This document shows positions 13,979-60,892 of a stretch of 64,000 bases of DNA, piece by piece; the first letter of the stretch is position 1; every line of letters starts with the position of its first letter. This DNA is from Patescibacteria group bacterium (lineage in GTDB: Bacteria > Patescibacteriota > Patescibacteriia > UBA1558), in assembly GCA_016784445.1 (NCBI GenBank), contig JADHUR010000002.1, positions 31,092-95,091 on the forward strand, read 5' to 3'. Under the pieces are notes generated by a model. It was not told the origin of the DNA. It did no database searches and saw nothing but the letters and a program-made list of their open reading frames with translations. Made by a program: the position numbers and the translations under genes.

Positions 13979-15394
13979 ATGTCACTTACAAAAAAAGTAG
14001 CTTACAATACTGCCATGCAGTTTACAGGCAAAATAATAAGCACCATTATTGGTGTTATTATTGTAGGTCTTATAACTAGACATCTTGGTCAATCTGGATA
14101 TGGTCAATATACTACTGTTCTAGCCTTTGTACAGTTCTTTGCTGTTATTGTAGATCTTGGTCTCTACCTTGCCTTGATGCAAGAGATATCAGACCCTGAA
14201 GTAGACGAAAGAAAAGCAGTTAGTAATGTATTCACCATGAAATTAATGAGCGCTTTTGTCTTTTTTGCTCTTGCTCCATTTATTGTATTACTCTTTCCTT
14301 ATGCTCTCATTGTAAAACAAGGCGTGATATTAATGTCGATATCATTTTTCCTATTTACCTTAGCACAGGTTCTTGTAGCAATTTTTCAGAAGAATTTGCG
14401 AATGGATAAAATTATTGGAACAGAAGTTATTGGAAGATTAGCTTTCCTCATAACAGTTATCTTGGTGGTAGTATTTCAAAAGGGTTTACTCTATATAATT
14501 CTAGGTAATGTAGTCTTTAATATAATATATTTTGGTTTAATATTCTTCATGGCCAGAAGTTATACAAAATTTAACTTTGGCTTTGACTTTGTCTATTGGA
14601 AAAAGATTTGGCATAGAGCCTGGCCAATTGCTCTCACTTCATTACTTACTCTTGTTTACTTTAAAGCAGATACATTAATTTTATCTGTATACAGGAGTGA
14701 GGGTGAGGTTGGTATTTATGGGGCAACTTATAAAGTACTGGAAATAATTGGCACTTTCCCTCATATGTTTTTAGGGCTTGTTTTGCCAGTTTTAACAGCA
14801 GCCTATGTTACAAATAATATTGAGAGATTCAAACGTGTGTATCAAAAAGTTTTTGATTTCTTTTTAATGATTTCTATACCTCTTATTGTTGGCACCATGC
14901 TACTTGCAGATAGAGTGATGGTATTGATAGCTGGCGATGAATTTATAGCCTCTGGTGATGTATTAAAAATATTAATCTGGGCAACAGCTATAATATTTTT
15001 TGGTAGTTTATTTGGCTATATTATCTTAGCTATTGATAAACAAAAAAAGATGATACCTTACTATATTATTACAGCAGCTATGGCGCTCATATTATACTTT
15101 GCATTAATCCCTCAATTCTCCTACTGGGCAGCAGCTAGTATAACTGTATTTATTGAATTGCTGTACACCCTATTTGCCTTCTATATTAGCTATAAATACT
15201 CTAAAATAGGTATTAATCTAAGATCCTTTATTAAGATACTATTTGCAAGTTTAATTATGGGACTCTTCATATATGTTCTATTTAGCCTAAACCTAATGCT
15301 ATTAATCTTTCTTGCTTCAATAATTTATATACTAACCCTCTATCTTGTTAAAGGTATAGACAAAAGCATCCTTAATGAATTAAGAGCAAAATAA
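13979..15394 (+). CDS. MOP-superfamily flippase (Wzx/MurJ-like polysaccharide biosynthesis protein)
   Basis: 471 aa with about 12-14 predicted TM helices and the architecture of Wzx-type oligosaccharide flippases. Confidence 0.55.
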   Translation: MSLTKKVAYNTAMQFTGKIISTIIGVIIVGLITRHLGQSGYGQYTTVLAFVQFFAVIVDLGLYLALMQEISDPEVDERKAVSNVFTMKLMSAFVFFALAPFIVLLFPYALIVKQGVILMSISFFLFTLAQVLVAIFQKNLRMDKIIGTEVIGRLAFLITVILVVVFQKGLLYIILGNVVFNIIYFGLIFFMARSYTKFNFGFDFVYWKKIWHRAWPIALTSLLTLVYFKADTLILSVYRSEGEVGIYGATYKVLEIIGTFPHMFLGLVLPVLTAAYVTNNIERFKRVYQKVFDFFLMISIPLIVGTMLLADRVMVLIAGDEFIASGDVLKILIWATAIIFFGSLFGYIILAIDKQKKMIPYYIITAAMALILYFALIPQFSYWAAASITVFIELLYTLFAFYISYKYSKIGINLRSFIKILFASLIMGLFIYVLFSLNLMLLIFLASIIYILTLYLVKGIDKSILNELRAK

Positions 15395-16786
15395 ATGTTA
15401 AATCTTTTACTAATATCAATTTTCTATATCTTCTTTATTGTTTTTGCTTGGCCAAAAATGGAAAGAGGTGTTTATTTAATTATACTTTTATTACCAACAT
15501 ATTTAATACGCTTCCAAATAATTAATATTCCCCTCACATTATTGGAAGGAATGGTTTTATTATTATTCTTAATGTGGTTGATAAAACTATGGCAAAGTAA
15601 AAAATTACACATTGCAATATCTGCTTGGCTTAAAAAAACTTTTAGATCAGAAACTGAAATCGTGGGCACAACAAAGCGTAACTTAATTCCAAAAATTATT
15701 GCTCTACCAATATTTATATTTTTTCTATCCTCAATAGTTGCTCTCACTTTAACTCCTCAAACTATATTAGGGGCAGGAATATGGAAAGCATACTTTCTTG
15801 AACCATTAATGTTTTTAGGGGTAATGCTTTATTATATACGAAAGAATTCTGAAATTAATAAATTGATATACGCCTTTAGCATTTTATCTATAGCAGTTTT
15901 TATTTATGCACTTATTCAAAAATTAACTGGCTGGAATATTCCTACTCTAGATTGGTATTTACCTGAAACAAGAAGAGTAACAACTTTCTTCGGCTATCCG
16001 AATGCAAATGGTCTATTACTAGCACCAATTGGAGCTTTAATTTTTGCAACGCTTTGGATAAAGGAATATACATTTTTAAAGATCTTAAAACTTATTTCAT
16101 TTATTTCTATTATCTTAACAATAATGTGGGCGGGTAGCGAAGGTGCCTTAATTGCATTAAGCCTTGGTGTATTTATAATATTACTTACAAAAAAACACAC
16201 CCGTCTTCTTGCTATTATACTGGCAATTATCTGTTTTGCTGGAATACTATTAACTCCAACACTAAGAACAGTAATGTTTGAGAAATTAACCATATCTGAT
16301 CACTCCGGTCAGATTAGACAAGCACAATGGACTGAAACAATCTCTATGCTAAGAGATAGGCCCATAAACGGAAGCGGGCTCGCTAATTATAAGCAAGCCA
16401 TTGAACCATATCATTCATCTGGTCTTACAATTAACGACAAGTGGCAACCTGTAGAAATATTCCTTTACCCTCATAATATAATTCTAAATTTCTGGGCTGA
16501 GATAGGTATATATGGTCTATTTAGTATTATTTGGCTATTTATTGTCCTAGGGGTGCTTATATACAGGATAAATATTAAGAAAAAATGGCTTCCTAAGTAT
16601 AAAAAAGAATATATTAACCATCTAAGCCTTGGTGTTAGTTCTGCTTTTATAGTAATAATAGTACATGGGCTTGTGGATGTGCCTTACTTTAAAAACGATT
16701 TGAGTATACTTTTCTGGATAATAACAGGTATTACAATAATTCTTTATAACCATACTGTTAATAAAAAGATAGCTGAATTAGAATAG
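15395..16786 (+). CDS. O-antigen ligase/Wzy_C-family membrane protein
   Basis: Polytopic membrane protein with a large external loop carrying an RDRPINGSGLANYKQA motif of the Wzy_C type. Its start codon overlaps the stop codon of the preceding flippase (taaATG). Confidence 0.5.
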   Translation: MLNLLLISIFYIFFIVFAWPKMERGVYLIILLLPTYLIRFQIINIPLTLLEGMVLLLFLMWLIKLWQSKKLHIAISAWLKKTFRSETEIVGTTKRNLIPKIIALPIFIFFLSSIVALTLTPQTILGAGIWKAYFLEPLMFLGVMLYYIRKNSEINKLIYAFSILSIAVFIYALIQKLTGWNIPTLDWYLPETRRVTTFFGYPNANGLLLAPIGALIFATLWIKEYTFLKILKLISFISIILTIMWAGSEGALIALSLGVFIILLTKKHTRLLAIILAIICFAGILLTPTLRTVMFEKLTISDHSGQIRQAQWTETISMLRDRPINGSGLANYKQAIEPYHSSGLTINDKWQPVEIFLYPHNIILNFWAEIGIYGLFSIIWLFIVLGVLIYRINIKKKWLPKYKKEYINHLSLGVSSAFIVIIVHGLVDVPYFKNDLSILFWIITGITIILYNHTVNKKIAELE

Positions 16787-16875
16787 GAGGTGTGGCAGAG
16801 TGGTTTAATGCGCTGCTCTCGAAAAGCAGTGGACCTTAATTGGTCTCGAAGGTTCGAATCCTTCCATCTCCGCCA
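16786..16875 (+). tRNA. tRNA-Ser (anticodon CGA), type II with long variable arm, CCA encoded
   Basis: Cloverleaf folded by hand: acceptor GGAGGTG / CATCTCC, anticodon loop CTCGAAA, T-arm GAAGG-TTCGAAT-CCTTC. Confidence 0.85.
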
Positions 16876-17407: not shown

Positions 17408-17524
17408 ATTTTATTTTATAAATAATTATATATACAGTATATAGTATTTGAGTGATTCAGTCTTTTGTTTTACAAACTGCCCATAAAATTGTATAATTTA
17501 CCTAGTTTTAACAAAAAAACAACT

Positions 17525-18922
17525 ATGATATCTAAAACAAAACTCACAATTCTTACTCTAATTCTTATTTCCATGCCATTGATGGGTTTTGGTTGTAAAT
17601 TCTCTCAGAGTTCTGAGGTTGAACAACTATATAAACCTATTGAATTAAATTGGTGGGGAGTTTGGGAAGAAACGGCTGATGTTGCAACTTTAATTAATGC
17701 ATATCAGACAATTCATCCAAATATTAAAGTAAAATATAGAAAATTTCGTTTTGAAGAATATGAAGCTGAATTAACAAAAGCATGGCTTGAACAAAGAGGG
17801 CCAGAAATATTTTCTATACCCTCTACTCTTTTAAGACAGTATGAGAACTTAATAAAACCTATGCCCTCTTCAATGAGAATTCCTTTCCTTGAAATAAAAA
17901 AAGGTCTTAAAGAAGAACAAATTATTACAGTGAAGACAATCTCTGGTTTAACCCCTAAAAAAGTACAAGAACTATTTGCTCCTGTAGTGCATGAACAAGT
18001 TATTATTAATGATGAGGTTTATGGCCTTCCACTCAGTGTTGATACTTTAGCTCTTTATTATAATAGAGATCTATTAAATAGTGCTAAAATTCCATTACCA
18101 GCTACTACTTGGGCCGAACTTGTAGAACATGTAAAGGATCTTACCACCTATGATAATGATGGTAATATATTGCAATCTGGAATTGCTTTAGGTTCGGCTA
18201 ATAATATTCCTCGTGCTAATGATATACTTTCCTTATTAATGATGCAGAACGGTGCACAAATGACTGGTGATAATAATTATGCAACCTTTAATCAAGCTCC
18301 ACCAGACCAGGGAAGATTTTATCCTGGCAAGGATGCTTTAGAGTTTTATGTAGACTTTATTGATCCTACAAAGGAAGTTTATTCATGGACAGAAGATAAA
18401 CCTGATGCATTAGAGATGTTTACTTCAGGAAAACTTGCTTACTTTATTGGTTATGCTTATCAAGCACCAATTATAAAAGCTCAATCACCTAAATTAAATT
18501 TTAATATATCTCCAATGCTACAAACTGTTCCTGATGTACAAGAAGTTAATTTTGCAGATTTCTGGGCATTAACAACCTATTTTGGTGCTGCAGAAGAGAA
18601 GCTTTCACCTGCTTGGGATTTCATTAGATATATTACTACCACTCCTGAACTTACGAAGAAATACCTTGAAGAAAGCAAACAACCAACCGCATTACTGTCA
18701 CTTATAAATGACCAGATACAAACTGAAAGCATGGGCATTTTTGCAGATCAAGTTTTAAATGCACGTGCTTGGTATAGAGGTTATGACGCAGCAGAAGCAG
18801 ATAATGCTATGAGTGATCTTATTTATCAAGCATATCATAATGTTTCAAGCGAACTGGCAACTATAGATATATTGGACTTAACAGTTCGTAGAATTAATCA
18901 AACAATTAGAAAACCTGAATGA
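17525..18922 (+). CDS. lipoprotein resembling an ABC-type extracellular solute-binding protein (family 1)
   Basis: Lipobox MGFGC. An LNWWGVWEE...IKVKY N-terminal region typical of type-1 SBPs. ATG 17525 is preferred over the upstream TTG of the ORF track. The stop overlaps the start of the first pilin-like gene (ATGA). Confidence 0.5.
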   Translation: MISKTKLTILTLILISMPLMGFGCKFSQSSEVEQLYKPIELNWWGVWEETADVATLINAYQTIHPNIKVKYRKFRFEEYEAELTKAWLEQRGPEIFSIPSTLLRQYENLIKPMPSSMRIPFLEIKKGLKEEQIITVKTISGLTPKKVQELFAPVVHEQVIINDEVYGLPLSVDTLALYYNRDLLNSAKIPLPATTWAELVEHVKDLTTYDNDGNILQSGIALGSANNIPRANDILSLLMMQNGAQMTGDNNYATFNQAPPDQGRFYPGKDALEFYVDFIDPTKEVYSWTEDKPDALEMFTSGKLAYFIGYAYQAPIIKAQSPKLNFNISPMLQTVPDVQEVNFADFWALTTYFGAAEEKLSPAWDFIRYITTTPELTKKYLEESKQPTALLSLINDQIQTESMGIFADQVLNARAWYRGYDAAEADNAMSDLIYQAYHNVSSELATIDILDLTVRRINQTIRKPE

Positions 18923-19587
18923 AGAAATTATTATTAGTTTTATTTTTATTACTTTTGCCAGTTCTTGCAAGCGCATCTGTTTTTCAAGACCCAAGTTACT
19001 ATCCTTACGAGGATCAGGTTGAACATCAAAATGACCCTGGCTTTTTTACAAATCAAGAAAACTATGATCAATCATGCATAGCAGATGGAAGCTGTTCTCT
19101 AGATCAAGGGTTTAATACTTTTGTTGTTTTATCTAAATGGGCCATGGGAATACTTGGTAGTATATCTCTACTATTTTTCATAATCGGTGGAATCATGTGG
19201 CTTACTTCCGGCGGAAAACCAGGCCCAATTCAACAAGGTAAAAGTATAATGATTAGCACAGTAATTGGAATAATAATTGTAATGAGTTCATGGTTAATAG
19301 TTCAGGCCGTCCTCACCTCTCTTTCAGATAGAACTCTGCAAGGTTTAGATGGCGGAAGTCAAACACAAGATCTTTGTTCAACTGAATTAGATGAAGGTGA
19401 TTCATGTCGTGGTAATCTTGGAATTTGTCAGGGTGGTATTTGTGTTGAAAAATGTACCGCAACAAATACCAGACCTCCAGGCGGTGGATATGATTGTAGA
19501 GAATTTACAGATTGCGATGAAGATTCTATTATAAGAATGTATTGCTTCGGTTCAAATAGTACTGTTTGTTGTCAGGCGTCTCAATAA
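18919..19587 (+). CDS. VirB2/TrbC-like two-TM pilin-family protein with a Cys-rich C-terminal extension (array member 1)
   Basis: Signal peptide, then a variable N-terminal segment, then the core GGIMWLTSGG-KPGPIQQGK-second TM, then about 90 aa containing 10 Cys. Confidence 0.5.
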   Translation: MKKLLLVLFLLLLPVLASASVFQDPSYYPYEDQVEHQNDPGFFTNQENYDQSCIADGSCSLDQGFNTFVVLSKWAMGILGSISLLFFIIGGIMWLTSGGKPGPIQQGKSIMISTVIGIIIVMSSWLIVQAVLTSLSDRTLQGLDGGSQTQDLCSTELDEGDSCRGNLGICQGGICVEKCTATNTRPPGGGYDCREFTDCDEDSIIRMYCFGSNSTVCCQASQ

Positions 19588-19603
19588 TAAATAAATAAAA
19601 TAT

Positions 19604-19939
19604 ATGAATAAAAAACTTATTAATTTCATAATAGCTTTCTCAATTCTATTAATAATAGTAGCTATTCCAGTCCAAGCAACAAATATTAACAACCCCCTAA
19701 CTGTAGATAGCCCTCAAGAGTTGGTAGGGGTCATTATTAAGGCGCTACTTGGTCTAACAGGTACAATTTCACTTATTTACTTTATTATTGGTGGTTTTAT
19801 GTGGATGACAGCGGGCGGAAATAAAGATAATGTCCAAAAAGGTAAAAATACACTAGTCTGGGCAACCCTAGGACTTGTTATAATATTCTCTGCTTACAGT
19901 ATTCTAACCTTTGTTTTTGACATATTACCAACCAATTAA
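19604..19939 (+). CDS. VirB2/TrbC-like pilin-family protein (array member 2)
   Basis: Signal peptide (AxA cleavage site), TM1 ending in GGFMWMTAGGN, a basic loop KDNVQKGK, then TM2. Confidence 0.5.
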   Translation: MNKKLINFIIAFSILLIIVAIPVQATNINNPLTVDSPQELVGVIIKALLGLTGTISLIYFIIGGFMWMTAGGNKDNVQKGKNTLVWATLGLVIIFSAYSILTFVFDILPTN

Positions 19940-20028
19940 ATTGTTAAAATCAGTAAATTATAGTATAATATTTCTATAATTAGTGTATAATAATTAAAAT
20001 ATCCTTAATAAAGTGTAATTAAAAAACT

Positions 20029-20418
20029 ATGAGTAAAAAGTTAATTTTTCTTTTGGTGCTAGTTTCTTTACTAGCTCTACCAATGATACAAACAGTTCAC
20101 GCATCTCCATCATCTGGAGACGTAAGAGCTTTAACCGGAATAGATGAAGATGTAACTAATCCCGGACTAGGGGAAGAAGACCTAGATGTTGTTGTACAAG
20201 AAATTATCAAAGTTATTCTTGGCTTCTTAGGCTTAATTGCCGTTGTCATTATATTAGTGGGTGGATTCTTCTGGATGACAGCTGGTGGTAATGAAGATAA
20301 TGTTAAAAAAGGTAGAAAGTGGATTATTAATGGTGTTATTGGCCTTCTTATCGTTCTTTCAGCTTATGCTATTGCAGAATTCGCAATTTCAAACGCTGCT
20401 GACGTAACAACACAATAA
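20029..20418 (+). CDS. VirB2/TrbC-like pilin-family protein (array member 3)
   Basis: Signal peptide, acidic N-terminal ectodomain, GGFFWMTAGGNEDNVKKGR core, TM2. Confidence 0.5.
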   Translation: MSKKLIFLLVLVSLLALPMIQTVHASPSSGDVRALTGIDEDVTNPGLGEEDLDVVVQEIIKVILGFLGLIAVVIILVGGFFWMTAGGNEDNVKKGRKWIINGVIGLLIVLSAYAIAEFAISNAADVTTQ

Positions 20419-20470
20419 AAAATAAATAATTATTAACTTGCCCACGAAAGGGGGCTATATAAATAAATAT

Positions 20471-20830
20471 ATGAACAAAAAAGCATTTGCAATCATTATG
20501 GTTGTAGCAATCATGGCAGTTCCTATGCTAGGCATGGCAGCTCCAGATTTAGGCCTTGACGACGCACAAGCAATTGGCTTAGGCGACGCTGGTGTTAAAG
20601 ATATTGTTAACAATATCATTTCTATTATCCTAGGCTTTCTAGGATTAATAGCTGTTATCCTTATCCTAATTGGTGGATTCTTATGGATGACTGCTGGTGG
20701 TAATGAAGATAGAGTTAAGAAAGGTAGACAGTATATTATTAATGGTGTTATCGGATTGATCATCATTTTAGCTGCTTACGCTATCGCTTCTTTCGTAATT
20801 ACAAACCTTGTAGACGCAACTACAACTTAA
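20471..20830 (+). CDS. VirB2/TrbC-like pilin-family protein (array member 4)
   Basis: Close paralog of member 3 (GGFLWMTAGGNEDRVKKGR). ATG 20471 is preferred over the upstream start in the ORF track. Confidence 0.5.
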   Translation: MNKKAFAIIMVVAIMAVPMLGMAAPDLGLDDAQAIGLGDAGVKDIVNNIISIILGFLGLIAVILILIGGFLWMTAGGNEDRVKKGRQYIINGVIGLIIILAAYAIASFVITNLVDATTT

Positions 20831-20892
20831 ATTTATAGTCTAGACTATAGCGGATCATATTTATATGGTCCGCCTAAGCTTAAACTATATAA

Positions 20893-21279
20893 ATGAAAAT
20901 GACTTCAAAAAAATTAAACCTTTTGATTGTGGCTATATTTGTTATAGTCTTTTTTTCTATCCTATTTACAAGCCCTATACTTGCTATTGAAACAGGGTTA
21001 GACGAAACAGCGGGTATGGCTGGGTTTGAAACAGGAGCAACCGCAAAAACTCCTCCACAAATAGTAGCGAGTGTTATTCAAATAGCTCTAGGTTTTGTAG
21101 GGACACTATTCTTAATCTTTATCATTGTGTCTGGCTTTCAATGGATGACTGCTGGTGGCAATGCTACAACAATTGAAACGGCAAAGAAAAGAATAATAAA
21201 TGCAACTATTGGCCTTGTTATAATACTTGCTGCATATGCAATTACTCAATTCGTTCTAATAGAGATTGTAAACTTATAA
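20893..21279 (+). CDS. VirB2/TrbC-like pilin-family protein (array member 5)
   Basis: Core SGFQWMTAGGNATTIETAKKRIINA; shares blocks that are identical at nucleotide level with members 6-8. Confidence 0.5.
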   Translation: MKMTSKKLNLLIVAIFVIVFFSILFTSPILAIETGLDETAGMAGFETGATAKTPPQIVASVIQIALGFVGTLFLIFIIVSGFQWMTAGGNATTIETAKKRIINATIGLVIILAAYAITQFVLIEIVNL

Positions 21280-21282
21280 TAT

Positions 21283-21711
21283 ATGAAAAAATATTTACTC
21301 TTAATTACTCTTTGTTCTCTAATTCTTTTCTCTTCAGTATTAGTTACTAAAGCTGCATTATTAAACCAAGATGGCCTAACGGCAATAGGTGATCAGACAA
21401 TGGAATTTGGAGCTGATGCTGGCTACAATCCTGATGATATGACTCCATTACCAGTAAGAATAGGGAATATAATACAAATAGCTCTAGGCTTCGTAGGGAC
21501 ACTCTTTCTAATTCTAATCATTGTATCTGGTTTTCAATGGATGACTGCTGGTGGCAATGCTACAACTATAGAAACAGCAAAAAAAAGAATAATAAATGCT
21601 ATTATAGGCTTAGCTATTGTATTGGCCGCCTACAGTATAACCTGGTTTGTCACAGAACAAGTACTAGGTGTTACTGGAGTTATAGAATTACAAGAAGAAG
21701 TATTACAATAA
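21283..21711 (+). CDS. VirB2/TrbC-like pilin-family protein (array member 6)
   Basis: Same core; a 59-nt run identical to member 7; the N-terminal ectodomain is variable. Confidence 0.5.
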   Translation: MKKYLLLITLCSLILFSSVLVTKAALLNQDGLTAIGDQTMEFGADAGYNPDDMTPLPVRIGNIIQIALGFVGTLFLILIIVSGFQWMTAGGNATTIETAKKRIINAIIGLAIVLAAYSITWFVTEQVLGVTGVIELQEEVLQ

Positions 21712-21715
21712 ATAT

Positions 21716-22123
21716 ATGAATAAACACTTATTTTACACAGCAGCCCTACTAACAATCATCGTGCTATCCTCTCTCTTTGTACTAAACCCTTCTGTACAAG
21801 CATCTAATGTACAAGACGGCCTTAGACAAGTTGGCGGTGAAGCATATTACAATGACGGCACTATGGAGCCTGCAGAAGCAAACCCAACCAATATTGTGGG
21901 TAGTATTATAGAAATTGCTTTAGGTTTTTTAGGAATAATTTTCGTAATACTAATTATAGTATCAGGTTATCAATGGATGACTGCTGGTGGCAATGCTACA
22001 ACTATAGAAACAGCAAAAAAAAGAATAATCAATTCTGTAGTCGGACTACTTATTGTTCTAACAGCCTTTACAATAACTCTAGAAGTATTAAATAGAACAG
22101 GCGATATATTAACAAATAATTAA
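21716..22123 (+). CDS. VirB2/TrbC-like pilin-family protein (array member 7)
   Basis: Core SGYQWMTAGGNATTIETAKKRIINS. Confidence 0.5.
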   Translation: MNKHLFYTAALLTIIVLSSLFVLNPSVQASNVQDGLRQVGGEAYYNDGTMEPAEANPTNIVGSIIEIALGFLGIIFVILIIVSGYQWMTAGGNATTIETAKKRIINSVVGLLIVLTAFTITLEVLNRTGDILTNN

Positions 22124-22127
22124 ATCG

Positions 22128-22541
22128 ATGTTAAAAACAAGAAACAAGCAATTCTTCCTAAAAATATTCTTATTTTGTTTTTTGTTTATTATAATTTCTG
22201 CTCCTGCTTTACATGCCTCAGATGAAGTAATAGATAAAAATTTTGTTAAAGTCCTTAATGTTCAGAAGAATGCAATAGGAAACAATGATGAAACATCTGT
22301 ATCAACTATTATTATAAATATTCTTAAAATTGCATTAAGCTTTTTAGGAATACTCTTTGTTATTTTAATTATATGGTCAGGAGCTCAGTGGATGACCGCT
22401 GGTGGCAATGCAACAACAATTGAAACGGCAAAGAAAAGAATAATAAATTCTGTAATAGGCCTGGTAATAGTTTTAGGAGCCTTTGCTATAACAGAGTTTG
22501 TTCTAGACAATTTAATATCTGCTGTTGAAACAGAACAATAA
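22128..22541 (+). CDS. VirB2/TrbC-like pilin-family protein (array member 8)
   Basis: Core SGAQWMTAGGNATTIETAKKRIINS; a 36-nt block identical to member 5. Confidence 0.5.
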   Translation: MLKTRNKQFFLKIFLFCFLFIIISAPALHASDEVIDKNFVKVLNVQKNAIGNNDETSVSTIIINILKIALSFLGILFVILIIWSGAQWMTAGGNATTIETAKKRIINSVIGLVIVLGAFAITEFVLDNLISAVETEQ

Positions 22542-22542
22542 T

Positions 22543-22926
22543 ATGAAATATAAATTTATAACAATAAGCGCCCTATTAATATTTGTTTTTTTATTTAGCA
22601 TACAAGCTCAGGCAAGTGGTCTAAGTGATTTGGTTAATAGTGAGCTCGACACCGTTCAAGAGGGTATTACTGGCTCGACAACAGCAGCAAGTTTAGAAAA
22701 TATTATTATAAATATTGTTCATACGGTTTTAGGTTTTCTTGGATTAATATTTGTTGTTCTAATGATATGGTCAGGCTATCAATGGATGACATCTGGAGGA
22801 AATACAACCGCAATAGAAACTGCTAAGAAAAGAATCATAAATGCAGTAATTGGACTTGCTATTGTACTTGCAGCTTACTCCATAACTGAATTTTTAGTTA
22901 TACAAGTACTAAACGCTGTAAATTAA
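22543..22926 (+). CDS. VirB2/TrbC-like pilin-family protein (array member 9)
   Basis: Core SGYQWMTSGGNTTAIETAKKRIINA. ATG 22543 is preferred, which avoids overlap with member 8. Confidence 0.5.
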   Translation: MKYKFITISALLIFVFLFSIQAQASGLSDLVNSELDTVQEGITGSTTAASLENIIINIVHTVLGFLGLIFVVLMIWSGYQWMTSGGNTTAIETAKKRIINAVIGLAIVLAAYSITEFLVIQVLNAVN

Positions 22927-22971
22927 ATACAATAAAAACAGCTATATAGCTGTTTTTTTATTTACCCCGTT

Positions 22972-24552
22972 TTACTGTACAAAATAGACCCAGGCGTCAT
23001 TATCTTCGTAGACAAGGTCAAAGTATATATTGCCCTCTAACTGCTCATTTAGGGCAGTTTTTTGCTTATTAACGAGTATATAGTCTGCGTCTAGCTTTCC
23101 TTTTAATAGCGCATAGACATTCTTACTACTTTTACCGTTCATAATATCAATATAGTCGTCTTTAGATTGATAATATTTATTACTTATGATGTTTTCGTCA
23201 AGCCCCCACCAATATCTATTATTATCATTATAATAAAATAAAGGTGCCCAATCTTCATAATCACTATTAATAATTAATGCATTATCTGGTGTGTGATAAT
23301 ATAACCACTCTGCTACAGGTTGCATATAATTTAAGCTATATTTATCTTTAATATCATTTAATGCATAATAAGTTGCCATTGGAAAAGACAGAATCACTAT
23401 TAATAAAATAGTTTTTATAGATAATCTTATTGCTTTAGATGAAAACAAATTAATCAGTGCGCTATTGAGACCTCTTCCCTTAAAACCATCTCTTAATATC
23501 AATGAAGATGTTAGAGATAATAGAATTAACAATAATCCCCCTCCCCATTGCACAAAAATATATACAATCGTAAACACCACTGTTAAAACAAATAAATTAA
23601 CGGTTAGTTTGGATAGTCTACTTTTAGAGAATAGTGCCGTTAAAACTCCAGACAAAAAAACCATGAAAATAATTATTGCTCCAGATAATAATTTGCTCAA
23701 ACTAAGTAATGCTCCTCCAGAATCATTATGCGTAGTTCTGTTTACAATTTGCTCTCCATAGAAAGATAAGCTCTCGGGCCAATAAGGATGAGCAATTAGT
23801 CCTATAATAACTCCCGCTAAACAAAATATTAATATTAACCACTTTTTTCTTCCCACCCCACTACGTAATCCTAACTTTCTCATCACCCAATCTTTTAGAT
23901 TTCCAAATCTTGTACCGAAATTATCTAAACTGTACTTGTGATACACAAATTCTATAATAAGCCACACCATAGCAATGAGTAAAAGAAAAACAAATTGGCC
24001 CGTTAACAAGACAATAAGCACACTTAATATTCCTAGTTGCCAATATCTATAATTCACAATCAAGTCCAGGCCTATTAATAAAGATAATAATGATATAGCT
24101 TCCGGTCCAGAAAAACCTATCTCATTTAAAAAGAATATAGAGCTAAATAACAAAAGTACAAATAATTCAGGCCACACCCCTTCGTGTTTTTCTAGCCAAT
24201 AATATACATAGGTTGCCAAAAAACCAATAAATAATGCACCAAATAATTTAACAACCAAAAAGGTAGGTAAAAATCCTATAAATAAACTAAGAAAGAAATG
24301 GTATAGCCAATTATTATCTGCAAATCCATCACTATAATTTGTTGACTCTAACCAATTAAAATTGTCTAATTTTAGCGAATTTTCGGATAATTCTATCATT
24401 TTAGATTGATAGAAGAAATCTGTTGTAAGAAAATTAGGAGTCGCCTGTATCCAGGAGAATAATATAAAGACAATTAAAAAAACCAGTAGGTAATTCAACC
24501 TATGATCTTTAATAAAATGTAATAGTTTTTGCCAATTGTTCTGTACTAGCAT
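22972..24552 (-). CDS. polytopic integral membrane protein, possibly a GT-C-fold glycosyltransferase (ArnT/PMT-like architecture)
   Basis: About 10 N-terminal TM helices plus a roughly 140-aa C-terminal soluble domain. Convergent with the pilin-like array. An extended -10 element (TGaTATAAT) lies 6 nt upstream of the ATG. Confidence 0.3.
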   Translation of the reverse strand: MLVQNNWQKLLHFIKDHRLNYLLVFLIVFILFSWIQATPNFLTTDFFYQSKMIELSENSLKLDNFNWLESTNYSDGFADNNWLYHFFLSLFIGFLPTFLVVKLFGALFIGFLATYVYYWLEKHEGVWPELFVLLLFSSIFFLNEIGFSGPEAISLLSLLIGLDLIVNYRYWQLGILSVLIVLLTGQFVFLLLIAMVWLIIEFVYHKYSLDNFGTRFGNLKDWVMRKLGLRSGVGRKKWLILIFCLAGVIIGLIAHPYWPESLSFYGEQIVNRTTHNDSGGALLSLSKLLSGAIIIFMVFLSGVLTALFSKSRLSKLTVNLFVLTVVFTIVYIFVQWGGGLLLILLSLTSSLILRDGFKGRGLNSALINLFSSKAIRLSIKTILLIVILSFPMATYYALNDIKDKYSLNYMQPVAEWLYYHTPDNALIINSDYEDWAPLFYYNDNNRYWWGLDENIISNKYYQSKDDYIDIMNGKSSKNVYALLKGKLDADYILVNKQKTALNEQLEGNIYFDLVYEDNDAWVYFVQ

Positions 24553-53633: not shown

Positions 53634-55550
53634 ATGTATTTAGAGGATATTAAATTAACTGTATTTATATTATTGGTGGGATTATTTGTGATAGTCTTTC
53701 TTTCAAGTATTCAGGTCGTAGTAGCTCAAGTAAATTCCTCAATAATATTTACAGAGATCATGTATGATTTAGAGGGAGCAGATGATGGTTATGAATGGGT
53801 AGAAATATATAATGGTAGTGATGTAGATTATGTAATAGATAGTAGTTGGAGGTTCTATGATGGGAGTAATCACGTAGTGACCGTTACTCAAGGCGATGGA
53901 ATTCTATCTGCAGGTGAAGTTATTATTATTGCAGATAATACAGAGAATTATATTTTAACCCATCCAGACTATACTGAGGATCTATTAGATTCAGTTGTTA
54001 AATTAAATAATACAGGAGAAACCTTAAAATTGAGTTTGGATGGTGGAGAAACCTGGATTATAGAAGTAGAGTATTCAAGTTCTGTAGGAGCTGCAGGAGA
54101 TGGCAATACGTTAGAATATAATGGAGACGCTTGGCAGCAAAGTTTAATTGTTGGGGGTTCGCCGGGAGCCTATTTGGCAAATGATGAAGAAATAGAATGT
54201 TGTGATTGTAACTCATGTAATGTTATAGACATTATTCCAGACAATAATGAAGAAGCAGTAGAGATTATTGAAGAAGAAATTGAAGAAATAGTTGAAGAAG
54301 AGATTACAGATAATGGCAGCACTAGCATAACAAATCAGGAGGTTATAAAGGTGGTATACAGTGAAGTAATTATTATAAATGAGTTAATTCCAGATCCAGC
54401 GGGTAGCGATGAAGAGGGCGAATATATTGAATTGTTTAATAAAGGATCGGAATCTGTTGACATGGTGGGCTGGTACTTAATTGATGCTAGTGGCAAGAAA
54501 TTTGAATTGATAGGTAGTATTAATGGGCAGGAGTATTTAGTTATTTATAGAACAGAATCTAAAATAACATTAAATAATAGTGCAGGTGATAGTATTAGAT
54601 TATTGAATCCCATAGATGAAGTTGTATCGGAAGTTATGTACAGTGAATCGGTTGGTGGAGAAAGCTATTCGTATATAGATTCTGAATGGGTATGGACAGA
54701 TCAATTAACCCCAGGAGAGATTAATATTAGGGCTGTTGCTATAGAGATTGCTGAAGATGAGCCTGAAGAAGATGTCGATATAGAAATAAAGGAAGAAACA
54801 ATGGAATTACAATTGATATCTGAAATAAAGAATTTAGATAAGGATACAGAGGTATATGTGCGAGGAATTGTTACAGCACTCCCTGGACAATTTGCAGATA
54901 CATACTTTTATATATCAGAAATAGATTTTGATGGAGAAATAAACCTAAGTACAGGTATTCAAATTTATTCTTCTAAAAAATATTTTCCAGATTTAGAAAT
55001 TGGAGATATTATTAAAGTTTTTGGAAAATTATCAGAGACCAGTGGAGAGAAAAGAATCAAGATATTAGCAGAGGACGATATTCAATTTATTGAATCATAT
55101 AGCCTTCCTCAACCAGAAGAAGTTTTAACAGGAGAGATCTCTGATGATTATGAAGGGGGTCTTGTCTATGTGCAGGCTGATCTTATAGATAAGAAATCTA
55201 CCTCATGGTATTTAGATGACGATTCGGGAGAAATACGTGTATATATAAGCTCTAAGACAGGCATTGAAAAACCAATCGTAGAATTGGGACAACAAGTATT
55301 AGTGATAGGTATTATTAGTGAAACTAAGAGTGGCTTCCGTTTATTACCTAGATTCGATGAGGATATTGTTGTAGAAAAACTCGTTTTAGAGGAATTAGAA
55401 CCGGAGATAAATGTAATAAATAAATCTACAGATAAGTATATTAATTCAGAAGAGGGAACAAATGAAGATAGGGGTGATTTTGTTGGGTATGGCTTAGGAG
55501 TTGTTAGTCTTACAATGGTTTCCTGGGTATTAAAGTTAAAGTTAGTATAA
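53634..55550 (+). CDS. membrane-anchored surface protein with two lamin-tail-domain (LTD)-like modules
   Basis: IIFTEIMYDLEGADDGYEWVEIYNGSDVD and IIINELIPDPAGSDEEGEYIELFNKGSESVDMVGWYL match the LTD pattern; acidic EEIEEIVEEE linker; C-terminal TM helix. Confidence 0.55.
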   Translation: MYLEDIKLTVFILLVGLFVIVFLSSIQVVVAQVNSSIIFTEIMYDLEGADDGYEWVEIYNGSDVDYVIDSSWRFYDGSNHVVTVTQGDGILSAGEVIIIADNTENYILTHPDYTEDLLDSVVKLNNTGETLKLSLDGGETWIIEVEYSSSVGAAGDGNTLEYNGDAWQQSLIVGGSPGAYLANDEEIECCDCNSCNVIDIIPDNNEEAVEIIEEEIEEIVEEEITDNGSTSITNQEVIKVVYSEVIIINELIPDPAGSDEEGEYIELFNKGSESVDMVGWYLIDASGKKFELIGSINGQEYLVIYRTESKITLNNSAGDSIRLLNPIDEVVSEVMYSESVGGESYSYIDSEWVWTDQLTPGEINIRAVAIEIAEDEPEEDVDIEIKEETMELQLISEIKNLDKDTEVYVRGIVTALPGQFADTYFYISEIDFDGEINLSTGIQIYSSKKYFPDLEIGDIIKVFGKLSETSGEKRIKILAEDDIQFIESYSLPQPEEVLTGEISDDYEGGLVYVQADLIDKKSTSWYLDDDSGEIRVYISSKTGIEKPIVELGQQVLVIGIISETKSGFRLLPRFDEDIVVEKLVLEELEPEINVINKSTDKYINSEEGTNEDRGDFVGYGLGVVSLTMVSWVLKLKLV

Positions 55551-55989: not shown

Positions 55990-57018
55990 TTAGTCTTCTC
56001 CAATCCAAACACCTGATACGCCGGTAGTCACCAGCTCGTCTTCGAAGGTGAATGCGTATGGTTGATTTCTTTCGCTTCCCAGGATAATAAGCTCGCCCGA
56101 TTCTCCAGACGTGGCGTAGTTATCTCCGCGGAGAATACCACTCAAGTTGAGCGATTCCGACCCTTGAATTAGGCTATCCAAAGCAACCGAGTTCTCATTT
56201 GAGAATACTATCCTAACTCGCAGAGGTGCGTTCCCACTGTTTGATATTAATACAGTGTCTAGGTCAGCGGAGCTTAAGCCGTAATAACTTTGAAAATCAA
56301 AGTTGTAGCCCGGCATGTTGAACGTGTTGATATTAAGAGGGTATTCTATTAAAGATTGTCCAGATATCTCCAGATTAATAATAGCGCCCATCTTGGTTCC
56401 AGCAACGTCATATTCATCAGTAACCGTAACAGTGTCACCGCCTAGGGTATAGCTGTAGGACAGGGTAAGGGTGTCGGTAAATTCACCAATCTCCATTTCA
56501 AGTAGACTACCAATTCCAGCCAAAGGTGTTACGTGTTCTTTCACGATATTTACAATTGGCAGGGCGGTTACTTCGGTTCCCTGTTCAGAGGCCTGTATGA
56601 GACTGATGGCACCAGGAAAGATCTCAAGATTGTTGGCGGTAAAATCGATATCAAAGATATCTTGATTACCAACGTTCATAATTACGTATTGTAGAGTTCT
56701 CGTGTTAAGAACTTCACCGTAGTCAATCATTGCTGCCGCTATTTTGGCTAAACTGCCTTCTGTTAAATCCTCAAGTCGAATCGCAAGGCGACCCATTTTT
56801 TTCAGATTTTCCATAGCAGCTTCGCGCGGAAGATACTCTTTCCCGTCTGTTCCGGTAAATTTCTTTGCCAGAGCTTCGTTGCTCAACGGAACAAGGATTA
56901 ACTTGCTCATTGTTTCAGGCGGATCATCGTTTGGACCGGTGGGTCCGTTGTCGCAGCCGGTCATCACCATGACTACCAGCAATACGGTTGTCAGTAAAAA
57001 ACTCATCTTTTTTCTCAT
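55990..57018 (-). CDS. hypothetical lipoprotein with strongly elevated G+C, probably horizontally acquired
   Basis: Lipobox VMTGC. Composition is visibly more G+C-rich than its flanks. Its own long GC-rich terminator hairpin lies at 55931-55985. Confidence 0.5.
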   Translation of the reverse strand: MRKKMSFLLTTVLLVVMVMTGCDNGPTGPNDDPPETMSKLILVPLSNEALAKKFTGTDGKEYLPREAAMENLKKMGRLAIRLEDLTEGSLAKIAAAMIDYGEVLNTRTLQYVIMNVGNQDIFDIDFTANNLEIFPGAISLIQASEQGTEVTALPIVNIVKEHVTPLAGIGSLLEMEIGEFTDTLTLSYSYTLGGDTVTVTDEYDVAGTKMGAIINLEISGQSLIEYPLNINTFNMPGYNFDFQSYYGLSSADLDTVLISNSGNAPLRVRIVFSNENSVALDSLIQGSESLNLSGILRGDNYATSGESGELIILGSERNQPYAFTFEDELVTTGVSGVWIGED

Positions 57019-57378: not shown

Positions 57379-57471
57379 CCTAAATTGATCATTAATAATT
57401 GCATAGGTAACATAACGAGCATTTGTAATAAAAATAAATGTGCTACTTTTAGTAACCTAGCCAAAATATTT

Positions 57472-60597
<3,126 letters not shown>

Positions 60598-60775
60598 ATT
60601 ATTTTGTTTAGGTTAAATAAAATAATAACTAAAAGTAAAAGTTATGTTACCTTATACAGGCAGTATTAAGCTTGTAATGGTGTTTATTTTCTTAATAGCC
60701 ATCATATGTGTTAGTTTCATCGTATTTCCTATAATATAATCGTCGGTAGTTAGTTAATAATATATTGTTAATTAG

Positions 60776-60892
60776 CTTCCGGTGATTCTTGCGAAGGGGA
60801 AACACCCGATCCCATTTCGAACTCGGTAGTTAAGCTCTTCAGCGCCGATGATACTTGCCCCTGTGGTGTGGGAAAGTAGGCCATTGCCGGTT
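60776..60892 (+). rRNA. 5S ribosomal RNA
   Basis: ccgatcccatttcgaactcggtagttaagc...gtgggaaagtaggc matches the bacterial 5S core; the ends are approximate. Confidence 0.8.

Follow-up and report, generated by a model that had tools for sequence, protein, structure and literature searches.

The 64-kb window considered here, that is, the whole stretch of DNA that was analysed, carries a locus in which a lipoprotein of the solute-binding protein (SBP) type heads nine pilin-like genes. The full explanation that we favour, and consider probable, is that this is a chromosomal operon of a Komeilibacteria-like bacterium (class ABY1) encoding a sugar-SBP-type lipoprotein and nine PF18895 pilin-like proteins, which most likely serve a type IV secretion system (T4SS) encoded elsewhere as the subunits of a filament or conduit. 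Membership of the published patescibacterial class of VirB2-like pilin arrays is very likely, and the dependence of filament formation on a T4SS has even to slightly better than even chances. The array class itself is already published and is not a new kind of system. Patescibacteria are reported to be host-dependent, and no T4SS other than theirs, with its pilin array, has so far proved essential to the bacterium that encodes it. The array of one large class appears to be headed almost invariably by an orphan sugar-binding lipoprotein; it is also a hotspot of divergence between strains and is often flanked by glycosyl-transfer genes. This offers testable hypotheses on an SBP-pilin complex, on glycosylated pilins and on uptake versus adhesion, and the SBP-pilin pair can serve as a simple genomic marker for comparative and structural work.

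Nine pilin-like proteins of the PF18895 family

The nine open reading frames (ORFs) lie head to tail on the forward strand at 18919-22926 (Table 1). An original prediction, made from the letters of the sequence, had recognised nine such genes and assigned their products to the VirB2/TrbC type of pilin; the packing is confirmed, with spacers of 1-89 nt instead of the 4-100 nt given, and profile searches bear out the family. All nine copies exceed the gathering cut-off of Pfam family PF18895 (T4SS_pilin), scoring 31.2-42.4 bits against 26.6, which places the match far beyond chance. A metagenome contig in ENA is identical in sequence to 17465-24552 of the window, and the precomputed annotation of the identical contig agrees on PF18895. 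The related family PF04956 (TrbC/VirB2, cut-off 27.9 bits) is reached by two of the nine, pilins 2 and 9. The nearest named relatives of the locus are Candidatus Komeilibacteria and 'Patescibacteria group' metagenome-assembled genomes (MAGs), and in the published genome table the Komeilibacteria belong to GTDB class ABY1 (PMC12102498, Table S1). Three further Komeilibacteria-like genomes (L005, L006 and L008) and a close strain (L093) were compared.

By hydropathy, every copy comprises three hydrophobic stretches, namely the signal peptide and a pair of transmembrane (TM) helices. The signal segment ends in a small-x-A site; the strict AxA site first described holds for a few copies, while most have V/L/I/T-x-A. 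The acidic ectodomain that follows measures about 16-49 aa, shorter than the 25-60 aa originally estimated, and has a net charge of -2 to -9. The first TM helix ends in G..W.T.GG, the only part of a longer motif, formerly called invariant, that deserves the term, since its first G is S in copies 5-9 and its N is K in copy 1. A loop of the KKGR or AKKRIIN type, with a charge of +2 in 9/9 copies, leads into the second hydrophobic helix. Since the ectodomains are acidic and the loops basic, an orientation with both termini outside fits the positive-inside rule, and the hairpin proposed earlier, in which two TM helices joined by a short basic loop follow a cleavable signal peptide, is predicted from hydropathy and charge in all nine.

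Pilins 2-9 share 22-30% identity with copy 1, the closest pair of copies reaches 58%, and the array falls into four groups (pilin 1; pilin 2; pilins 3-4; pilins 5-9). Pilin 1, whose AlphaFold (AF2) model shows the hairpin, contains 12 cysteines in all, with two in the ectodomain and a Cys-rich domain at the C-terminus. The orthologs of pilin 9 in two relatives (L005, 11632-12102; L006, 11647-12123) are extended at the C-terminus by a Cys-rich stretch of about 30 aa, which pilin 9 of the window lacks; Cys-rich modules are thus gained and lost at differing array positions. The pilin genes are overlapped by antisense ORFs of 50-103 aa, for example at 20455-20766 on the reverse strand; these have no support as genes, and the composition of the sense strand most likely accounts for them.

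Three other assignments were considered and set aside. A holin or small-transporter reading was rejected as there is no phage context, and a type IV (class III signal) pilin reading because the signals are of the Sec type and not N-methyl. The NCBIfam model for the 'Mbov_0395 pilin-like' protein of mycoplasma integrative and conjugative elements gave 23-37 bits against a cut-off of 40, a resemblance and not membership.

The original prediction did not recognise the arrangement as a described system; this is wrong, since arrays of the kind have been published. A search of 3,035 Patescibacteria genomes with PF18895 and PF04956 identified 441 arrays in 383 assemblies, each array having 2-11 VirB2-like pilin genes with a mean identity of 25% and a maximum of 54%; the arrays were commonest in Microgenomatia and Saccharimonadia, and T4SS genes were often near dnaA (Quinonero-Coronel et al., 2025; PMC12102498). 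In Southlakia epibionticum, transposon sequencing showed that a predicted pilin series within the T4SS cluster is essential (Wang et al., 2023; PMC10633639), and the tables of that study list six PF18895 genes, SEML1_0014-0019, adjoining genes for VirB6-like, PrgI and VirB4 proteins. A review of 2025 regards this T4SS as potentially the first in a monoderm to form a pilus (PMC12857230). The window array resembles these systems in its PF18895 domains, a tandem number within the 2-11 range, low identity between copies, chromosomal location and position near dnaA (the dnaA/dnaN genes are about 10 kb away). It differs in not lying beside virB4, virB6 or prgI and in belonging to class ABY1 instead of the classes where the published arrays are commonest, and the Southlakia locus lacks the coupled SBP lipoprotein and the Cys-bearing first pilin that head the window array. 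With the VirB2/TrbC/TraA pilins of diderm T4SSs the copies share the signal peptide, two helices, a short basic loop and a mature core of about 70-100 aa, in addition to the two PF04956 matches. Unlike those pilins, they come from a host reported to be monoderm, have long variable N-terminal ectodomains, are nine in number and show neither adjacent T4SS genes nor similarity to solved pilins nor signs of a cyclisation or acetylation machinery.

The T4SS reading is supported by the presence of the same PF18895 family in the essential VirB6-like/PrgI/VirB4 cluster of Southlakia. The Komeilibacteria assemblies looked up in Table S1 of the published survey are all VirB4-positive (PMC12102498). Several observations weigh on the other side. 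Seven of the nine copies stay below the PF04956 cut-off, six with 15-26 bits and pilin 1 with no match. Neither a profile of the nine copies nor pilin 2 by itself gave a PDB sequence match to solved VirB2/TraA pilins, and Foldseek with the AF2 model of pilin 1 returned only noise, a weak negative as short helical hairpins are hard to match. A tblastn search with pilin 9 had no match among 72,556 plasmids and hence shows no direct connection with conjugative plasmids. No VirB4, VirD4, VirB6 or other recognisable T4SS gene was found in the 64-kb window among all ORFs of at least 350 aa and most of those of 100-350 aa, which bears out what had been noted for VirB4 and VirD4. Within 10 kb on either side of 83 related SBP-pilin loci (961 kb in total), a crude Walker-A and size filter combined with Pfam detected no VirB4-like ORF, and the large P-loop ORFs of these loci scanned against Pfam were SMC, FtsH, ClpB and IF-2. 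The conserved partners of the array, namely the SBP, a sugar-nucleotidyl transferase and glycosyltransferases, are not T4SS parts, and literature searches turned up no paper in which a T4SS pilus was seen on a patescibacterium.

In the mechanism that we propose, the pilins would leave the cytoplasm through Sec, lose their signal peptides to signal peptidase I and stay in the membrane as two-helix hairpins, with the acidic ectodomain and, in pilin 1, the disulfide-rich C-terminal domain outside and the basic loop in the cytoplasm. A VirB4/VirB6/PrgI-type T4SS encoded elsewhere would then extract and polymerise the hairpins into a surface filament or conduit at the contact with the host cell. 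In the structures of F- and T-pili, which consist of VirB2/TraA pilins, both ends of the pilin point outwards from the filament, and the lumen is lined by the loop together with bound phospholipid. A filament of the window proteins would in the same manner be coated by the ectodomains and the Cys-rich domain of pilin 1, while the KK(R) loops would line the lumen. A different product of T4SS export, secreted effectors or toxin subunits analogous to pertussis toxin, was the original interpretation of the 'secreted protein array' of TM7x, which was read as possible secreted effectors (McLean et al., 2020; PMC7427843). The N-terminal Sec signal peptides would suit this idea. We nevertheless regard it as highly improbable for the window array, given that the mature proteins keep two strongly hydrophobic helices and match pilin profiles, that no enzymatic domain was detected in them, and that later work reads such proteins as VirB2-like pilins (PMC12102498; PMC12857230).

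The solute-binding lipoprotein and its pairing with pilins

The lipoprotein upstream of the array had been likened to an ABC-type (ATP-binding cassette) solute-binding protein, and this holds. Its SBP_bac_1/8 matches score 81.7 and 59.4 bits, above the cut-offs, its relatives in the PDB are maltose- and oligosaccharide-binding proteins, and the lipobox cysteine is invariant in 16 homologs. Its stop codon overlaps the start of pilin 1 (ATGA), as originally described, and the 4-nt overlap recurs in L005, L006, L008 and L011. Together with a promoter-like site 5' of the SBP gene and a hairpin 3' of pilin 9, this overlap suggests, at the level of sequence, that the SBP and the nine pilins form a single transcription unit.

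The pairing extends well beyond the close relatives. A metagenome scan seeded with the SBP alignment alone yielded 80 loci, 68 of which have at least 600 bp of downstream DNA, and in 66 of these 68 independent loci a pilin ORF on the same strand starts within 300 bp downstream of the SBP. The number of pilins per SBP locus ranges from 0 to 13 where at least 9 kb of downstream DNA is present. The SBP-adjacent pilin is a distinct subtype, often with a Cys-rich tail: at least two cysteines precede the first helix in 60/69 cases, compared with 29/210 other pilins. SBP homologs of about 43% identity occur elsewhere among Patescibacteria, including MAGs named Falkowbacteria, Buchananbacteria and Kuenenbacteria. 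In three such genomes (L010-L012) the order is NTP_transferase, SBP, 7-10 PF18895 genes and a DUF2079 membrane protein, and NTP_transferase lies immediately 5' of the SBP in 24/59 loci.

The metagenomic loci also vary in what adjoins the pair. In one group (L089, 5271-9070; also L082, L083 and L088) genes for proteins resembling type IV pilus minor pilins (N_methyl, PilX_N) directly precede the NTP_transferase-SBP-pilin array. A gene of the GT28/MGDG-synthase-like or GT2 kind interrupts this array ahead of its last pilin, and the next genes are rpsO and pnp. In another group (L079, 11669-16264; also L027, L040, L067 and L091) about 4.5 kb separate the SBP and first pilin from six further pilins. 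This stretch carries a RodZ-like gene, a methyltransferase, a small membrane protein and a YraN-like gene, and, except in L067, a convergent pair of a GT2 and a 545-aa GT-C-like gene.

With the MalE/UgpB-type carbohydrate SBPs of ABC importers the window protein shares the SBP_bac_1/8 matches, the lipobox and aromatic-rich conserved positions. Unlike them, its family has no permease or ATPase gene nearby in any of the 83 loci, and its almost invariable neighbour is a pilin gene. Cognate permease or ATPase genes are not annotated beside the SBP in L001, L006, L008 and L010-L012, and no ABC-transporter-sized ATPase occurs in the 83 loci, where the only ORFs with both LSGGQ and Walker-A motifs are 880-1100 aa long and the one scanned against Pfam is SMC. 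The SBP therefore appears to be an orphan dedicated to the pilin cluster. It is 73-80% identical among the relatives and has a ratio of nonsynonymous to synonymous divergence (dN/dS) of 0.06; such strong conservation favours a fixed ligand over a variable host receptor. The SBP and pilin 1 make up the module's conserved core; as they are co-translated and co-conserved, they probably act together, perhaps in the role of an adaptor for binding or assembly.

These properties also form the case for an envelope module independent of any T4SS, in which the SBP, the two-TM pilin-like proteins and glycosyl-transfer genes would make up either an SBP-fed uptake pore or channel of oligomerised hairpins or a scaffold on which a surface glycan is made or anchored. 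Such a module would account for the constant adjacency of SBP and pilin, for the orphan state and conservation of the SBP, for the absence of VirB4-like ORFs within 10 kb and for the upstream NTP_transferase. Glycosyl-transfer genes recur near the arrays as well: DUF2079 on the same strand, STT3-like or related GT-C genes in convergent orientation, and GT2 or GT28-like genes inside or adjoining the array. However, only about one locus in three has such a gene in the first two positions downstream, and PF18895 proteins sit in a bona fide, essential T4SS cluster in Southlakia. We know of no SBP-dependent transporter that is built of VirB2-like hairpins. On balance this explanation appears unlikely.

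A more far-reaching reading can be put forward tentatively, although we think it rather doubtful. The SBP, the Cys-bearing first pilin and the following pilins would constitute a dedicated, phylum-specific surface apparatus of ABY1-type Patescibacteria, genetically uncoupled from the virB4 locus and often accompanied by glycosyl-transfer genes (an STT3-like GT-C, DUF2079 or GT2, and a sugar-nucleotidyl transferase upstream). A VirB2-type filament or conduit would then have a sugar-binding protein built into it. The SBP could be a lectin-like tip or base adaptor, or could provide the capture step in a pilus-mediated uptake of host-derived carbohydrates, and the pilins may be glycosylated. If true, this would be a new use of T4SS pilins and would give a handle on how auxotrophic episymbionts take material from their hosts. 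The near-invariable pairing of SBP and pilins, separated genetically from virB4, in ABY1-type lineages is an undescribed aspect of the array class. Solute-binding proteins, DUF2079 and glycosyltransferases are not mentioned in the published survey (PMC12102498), and a full-text literature search found no paper that joins the patescibacterial T4SS with SBP, DUF2079 or glycosyltransferase terms.

Positional orthology, strain divergence and a homogenised loop

The order of SBP, seven to nine pilins and the convergent GT-C gene is syntenic in L005, L006 and L008. The pilins are one-to-one positional orthologs across these relatives, copy 3 being missing in two genomes and copies 8-9 in one. The paralogs are thus old and individually maintained, which makes non-redundant or alternative subunits likelier than a cassette system. 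Best-matching pilin orthologs are 47-87% identical and in most cases more diverged than the neighbouring non-pilin genes (66-90%), and their N-terminal parts diverge more than the cores. The close strain L093 has nine pilin copies in the same order as the window. Pilins 5, 6 and 9 are 68-84% identical between the two, the other six pilins 90-96% and the neighbouring genes 91-98%. Synonymous divergence (dS) is raised in several pilins and reaches about 1.05 in pilins 5 and 6, compared with 0.25-0.37 in most housekeeping neighbours, 0.65 in Bcp and 0.41 in the SBP. No dN/dS value reaches 1, the highest being 0.71, for the N-terminal part of pilin 6. The raised dS suggests that alleles have been replaced or have recombined, and that selection on the protein is not the sole cause. 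The exposed parts, whose variability had been foreseen, and whole alleles of the pilins turn over fast between strains, as expected for a surface exposed to hosts or phages.

Divergence has an exception in the loop between the two TM helices. A patch of 60 nt is 88-98% identical among copies 5-8, while the flanking TM helices are 47-76% identical, and about 79% of its identical residues use the same codon compared with about 35% in those helices. Each related genome likewise has this loop homogenised, but to a sequence of its own. This pattern, read from nucleotide comparisons, indicates local gene conversion or co-evolution of a loop that would face the cytoplasm or the lumen. Positional orthology combined with hyperdivergence between strains, and the homogenised loop patch, are two further undescribed aspects of these arrays.

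The original prediction had seen in the array the pattern of an adhesive or antigenically variable filament. In a programmed antigenic or phase variation system, one or few copies would be expressed and recombination between copies would create new variants. The survey of patescibacterial arrays discusses host-range and antigenic versatility and draws a parallel with the virB2 paralogs of Bartonella and Anaplasma (PMC12102498). The ectodomains of the paralogs are indeed essentially unalignable (about 29% identity with the signal peptide included), the homogenised patch shows sequence exchange among copies 5-8, and divergence and dS between strains are high. Tandem virB2 paralogs of Bartonella, Anaplasma and Rickettsia likewise form rows of several diverged copies that are thought to vary the exposed surface; they lie in or near the vir operons of intracellular Proteobacteria, whereas the window copies are ancient positional orthologs with an SBP in their operon. 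Nonetheless, we consider programmed variation improbable. All copies are intact with their own starts, copies 5-9 are spaced by only 1-4 nt, which implies that they are transcribed together, and the array includes neither truncated nor silent copies. Copy order is orthologous in genomes whose housekeeping neighbours are only 66-90% identical and is unchanged in L093, no dN/dS exceeds 1, and the homogenised patch lies in the conserved loop and not in the variable part. Candidate invertible elements consisted only of long-range, imperfect, AT-rich inverted repeats, which were judged to be chance matches. Promoter-like matches are not enriched in the region (42, compared with 36.5 +/- 6.7 in shuffles), so that, of the internal promoters proposed earlier, a TTGTTA-17-TATAAT match exists (19941-19969) and its function as a promoter is unproven.

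Glycosyl-transfer neighbours and setting of the locus

The gene convergent with pilin 9 had been guessed to encode a GT-C-like glycosyltransferase. Its product has no Pfam match. Foldseek with its AF2 model (pLDDT 80) placed STT3, the oligosaccharyltransferase (OST), first (E = 8e-7), followed by DPY19, ALG12, PglB, AftA and ArnT, and a profile of its family matches AglB of A. fulgidus (3WAJ; E = 1.1e-9). These matches identify it as an STT3/AglB-like GT-C protein. With STT3/AglB/PglB enzymes it shares the GT-C fold and the C-terminal soluble domain (query-normalised TM-score 0.55-0.60); unlike them, it has no Pfam STT3 match or clear WWDYG motif, and the pilins have no conserved N-x-S/T sequon. 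D79 is conserved in 11/12 sequences, and after the membrane domain comes a D-[WY]-x-D-[WF] motif; the two are possible counterparts of the catalytic acidic residue in the first external loop and of the WWDYG-type acceptor motif of OSTs. The protein is 43-57% identical among the relatives and evolves faster than its neighbours. By hhalign its family is related to a second family of 545 aa with 96% probability; kinship with DUF2079, which may belong to Pfam's GT-C clan, was not significant, and DUF2079 has no PDB sequence match. An N-glycosylation sequon was also considered and dropped: orthologs do not conserve the N-A-T that copies 5-9 have in their loops, and the predicted location of the loop is the cytoplasm. 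A GT-C homolog of 24% identity in L007 (10001-11497) lies among insertion sequence elements and genes of polysaccharide synthesis (GT4, epimerase, GT1) with no pilins, so the family is not confined to pilin loci.

In Southlakia epibionticum ML1, the STT3/PglB/AglB-like GT-C gene SEML1_0023 is convergent with SEML1_0024, a seventh PF18895 pilin, and rpsO comes next (PMC10633639, supplement). Both genes were scored non-essential, unlike the six-gene array (PMC10633639). The pair mirrors pilin 9 and the GT-C gene of the window, and the pairing is thus seen in two distant classes. This is suggestive of a functional link between GT-C and pilins, which we put forward as a hypothesis. The convergent enzyme may glycosylate the exposed domains, the weakest step of the proposed mechanism.

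Table 1. Features of the SBP-pilin locus with their positions in the window.
Feature	Position	Strand	Description
Sigma-70-like match	17469-17497	+	TTTACA-17-TATAAT, 11/12, best of the region, 28 nt 5' of the SBP start; consensus match only; putative operon promoter
SBP lipoprotein	17525-18922	+	465 aa; MalE-like solute-binding fold; lipobox Cys24
Pilin 1	18919-19587	+	222 aa; PF18895 core; SBP-adjacent subtype
Pilin 2	19604-19939	+	111 aa; above cut-off for PF18895 (36.8 bits) and PF04956 TrbC (33.8 bits)
Pilin 3	20029-20418	+	129 aa; ortholog in L008, not in L005/L006
Pilin 4	20471-20830	+	119 aa; ATG 20471 preferred over the gene caller's start (20498) because the MNKK N-terminus is conserved
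Pilin 5	20893-21279	+	128 aa; 78.9% identity with L093 counterpart
Homogenised loop segment of pilin 5	21142-21201	+	60 nt, WMTAGGNATTIETAKKRIIN; nucleotide comparison of copies
Equivalent loop patches	21538-21597, 21974-22033, 22389-22448; less similar 22783-22842	+
Pilin 6	21283-21711	+	142 aa; 67.6% identity with L093, most divergent copy; N-terminal dN/dS 0.71
Pilin 7	21716-22123	+	135 aa; PF18895
Pilin 8	22128-22541	+	137 aa; PF18895
Pilin 9	22543-22926	+	127 aa; PF18895 38.4 bits, TrbC 34.8 bits
Palindromic hairpin	22934-22957		AAAAACAGCTATATAGCTGTTTTT; between convergent stops, 3' of pilin 9; likely bidirectional terminator
GT-C	22972-24552	-	526 aa; polytopic membrane protein with C-terminal soluble domain, STT3/AglB/PglB-like

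The window is AT-rich, with about 33% GC, and is made up of core chromosomal genes. These include rpoB/rpoC, ftsK, a RodZ-like gene, recA, a Wzx-like flippase, a Wzy_C protein, tRNA-Ser, bcp, pgi, yebC, ruvC, tyrS, a class A penicillin-binding protein, dnaN, dnaA and yidC. The flippase and the Wzy_C protein (O-antigen-ligase/PglL-type) occupy 13979-16875, two genes 5' of the SBP, and the last base of the Wzy_C stop codon is the first base of tRNA-Ser. Pilin O-glycosylases are found among the Wzy_C enzymes. An unlinked 23S-5S rRNA pair is also present. The 23S gene (57470-60600, paired with 60778-60892) matches over 3131 nt against a model of 2925 positions and probably carries an insertion of about 200 nt. 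A 16S gene was not found upstream of it inside the window, and an unannotated ORF of 342 aa on the reverse strand (55990-57018) lies immediately before it. At 53634-55550, adjoining ssb, a protein of 638 aa combines two lamin-tail domains with an OB-fold nucleic-acid-binding domain and could be an extracellular DNA-binding or nuclease-type protein.

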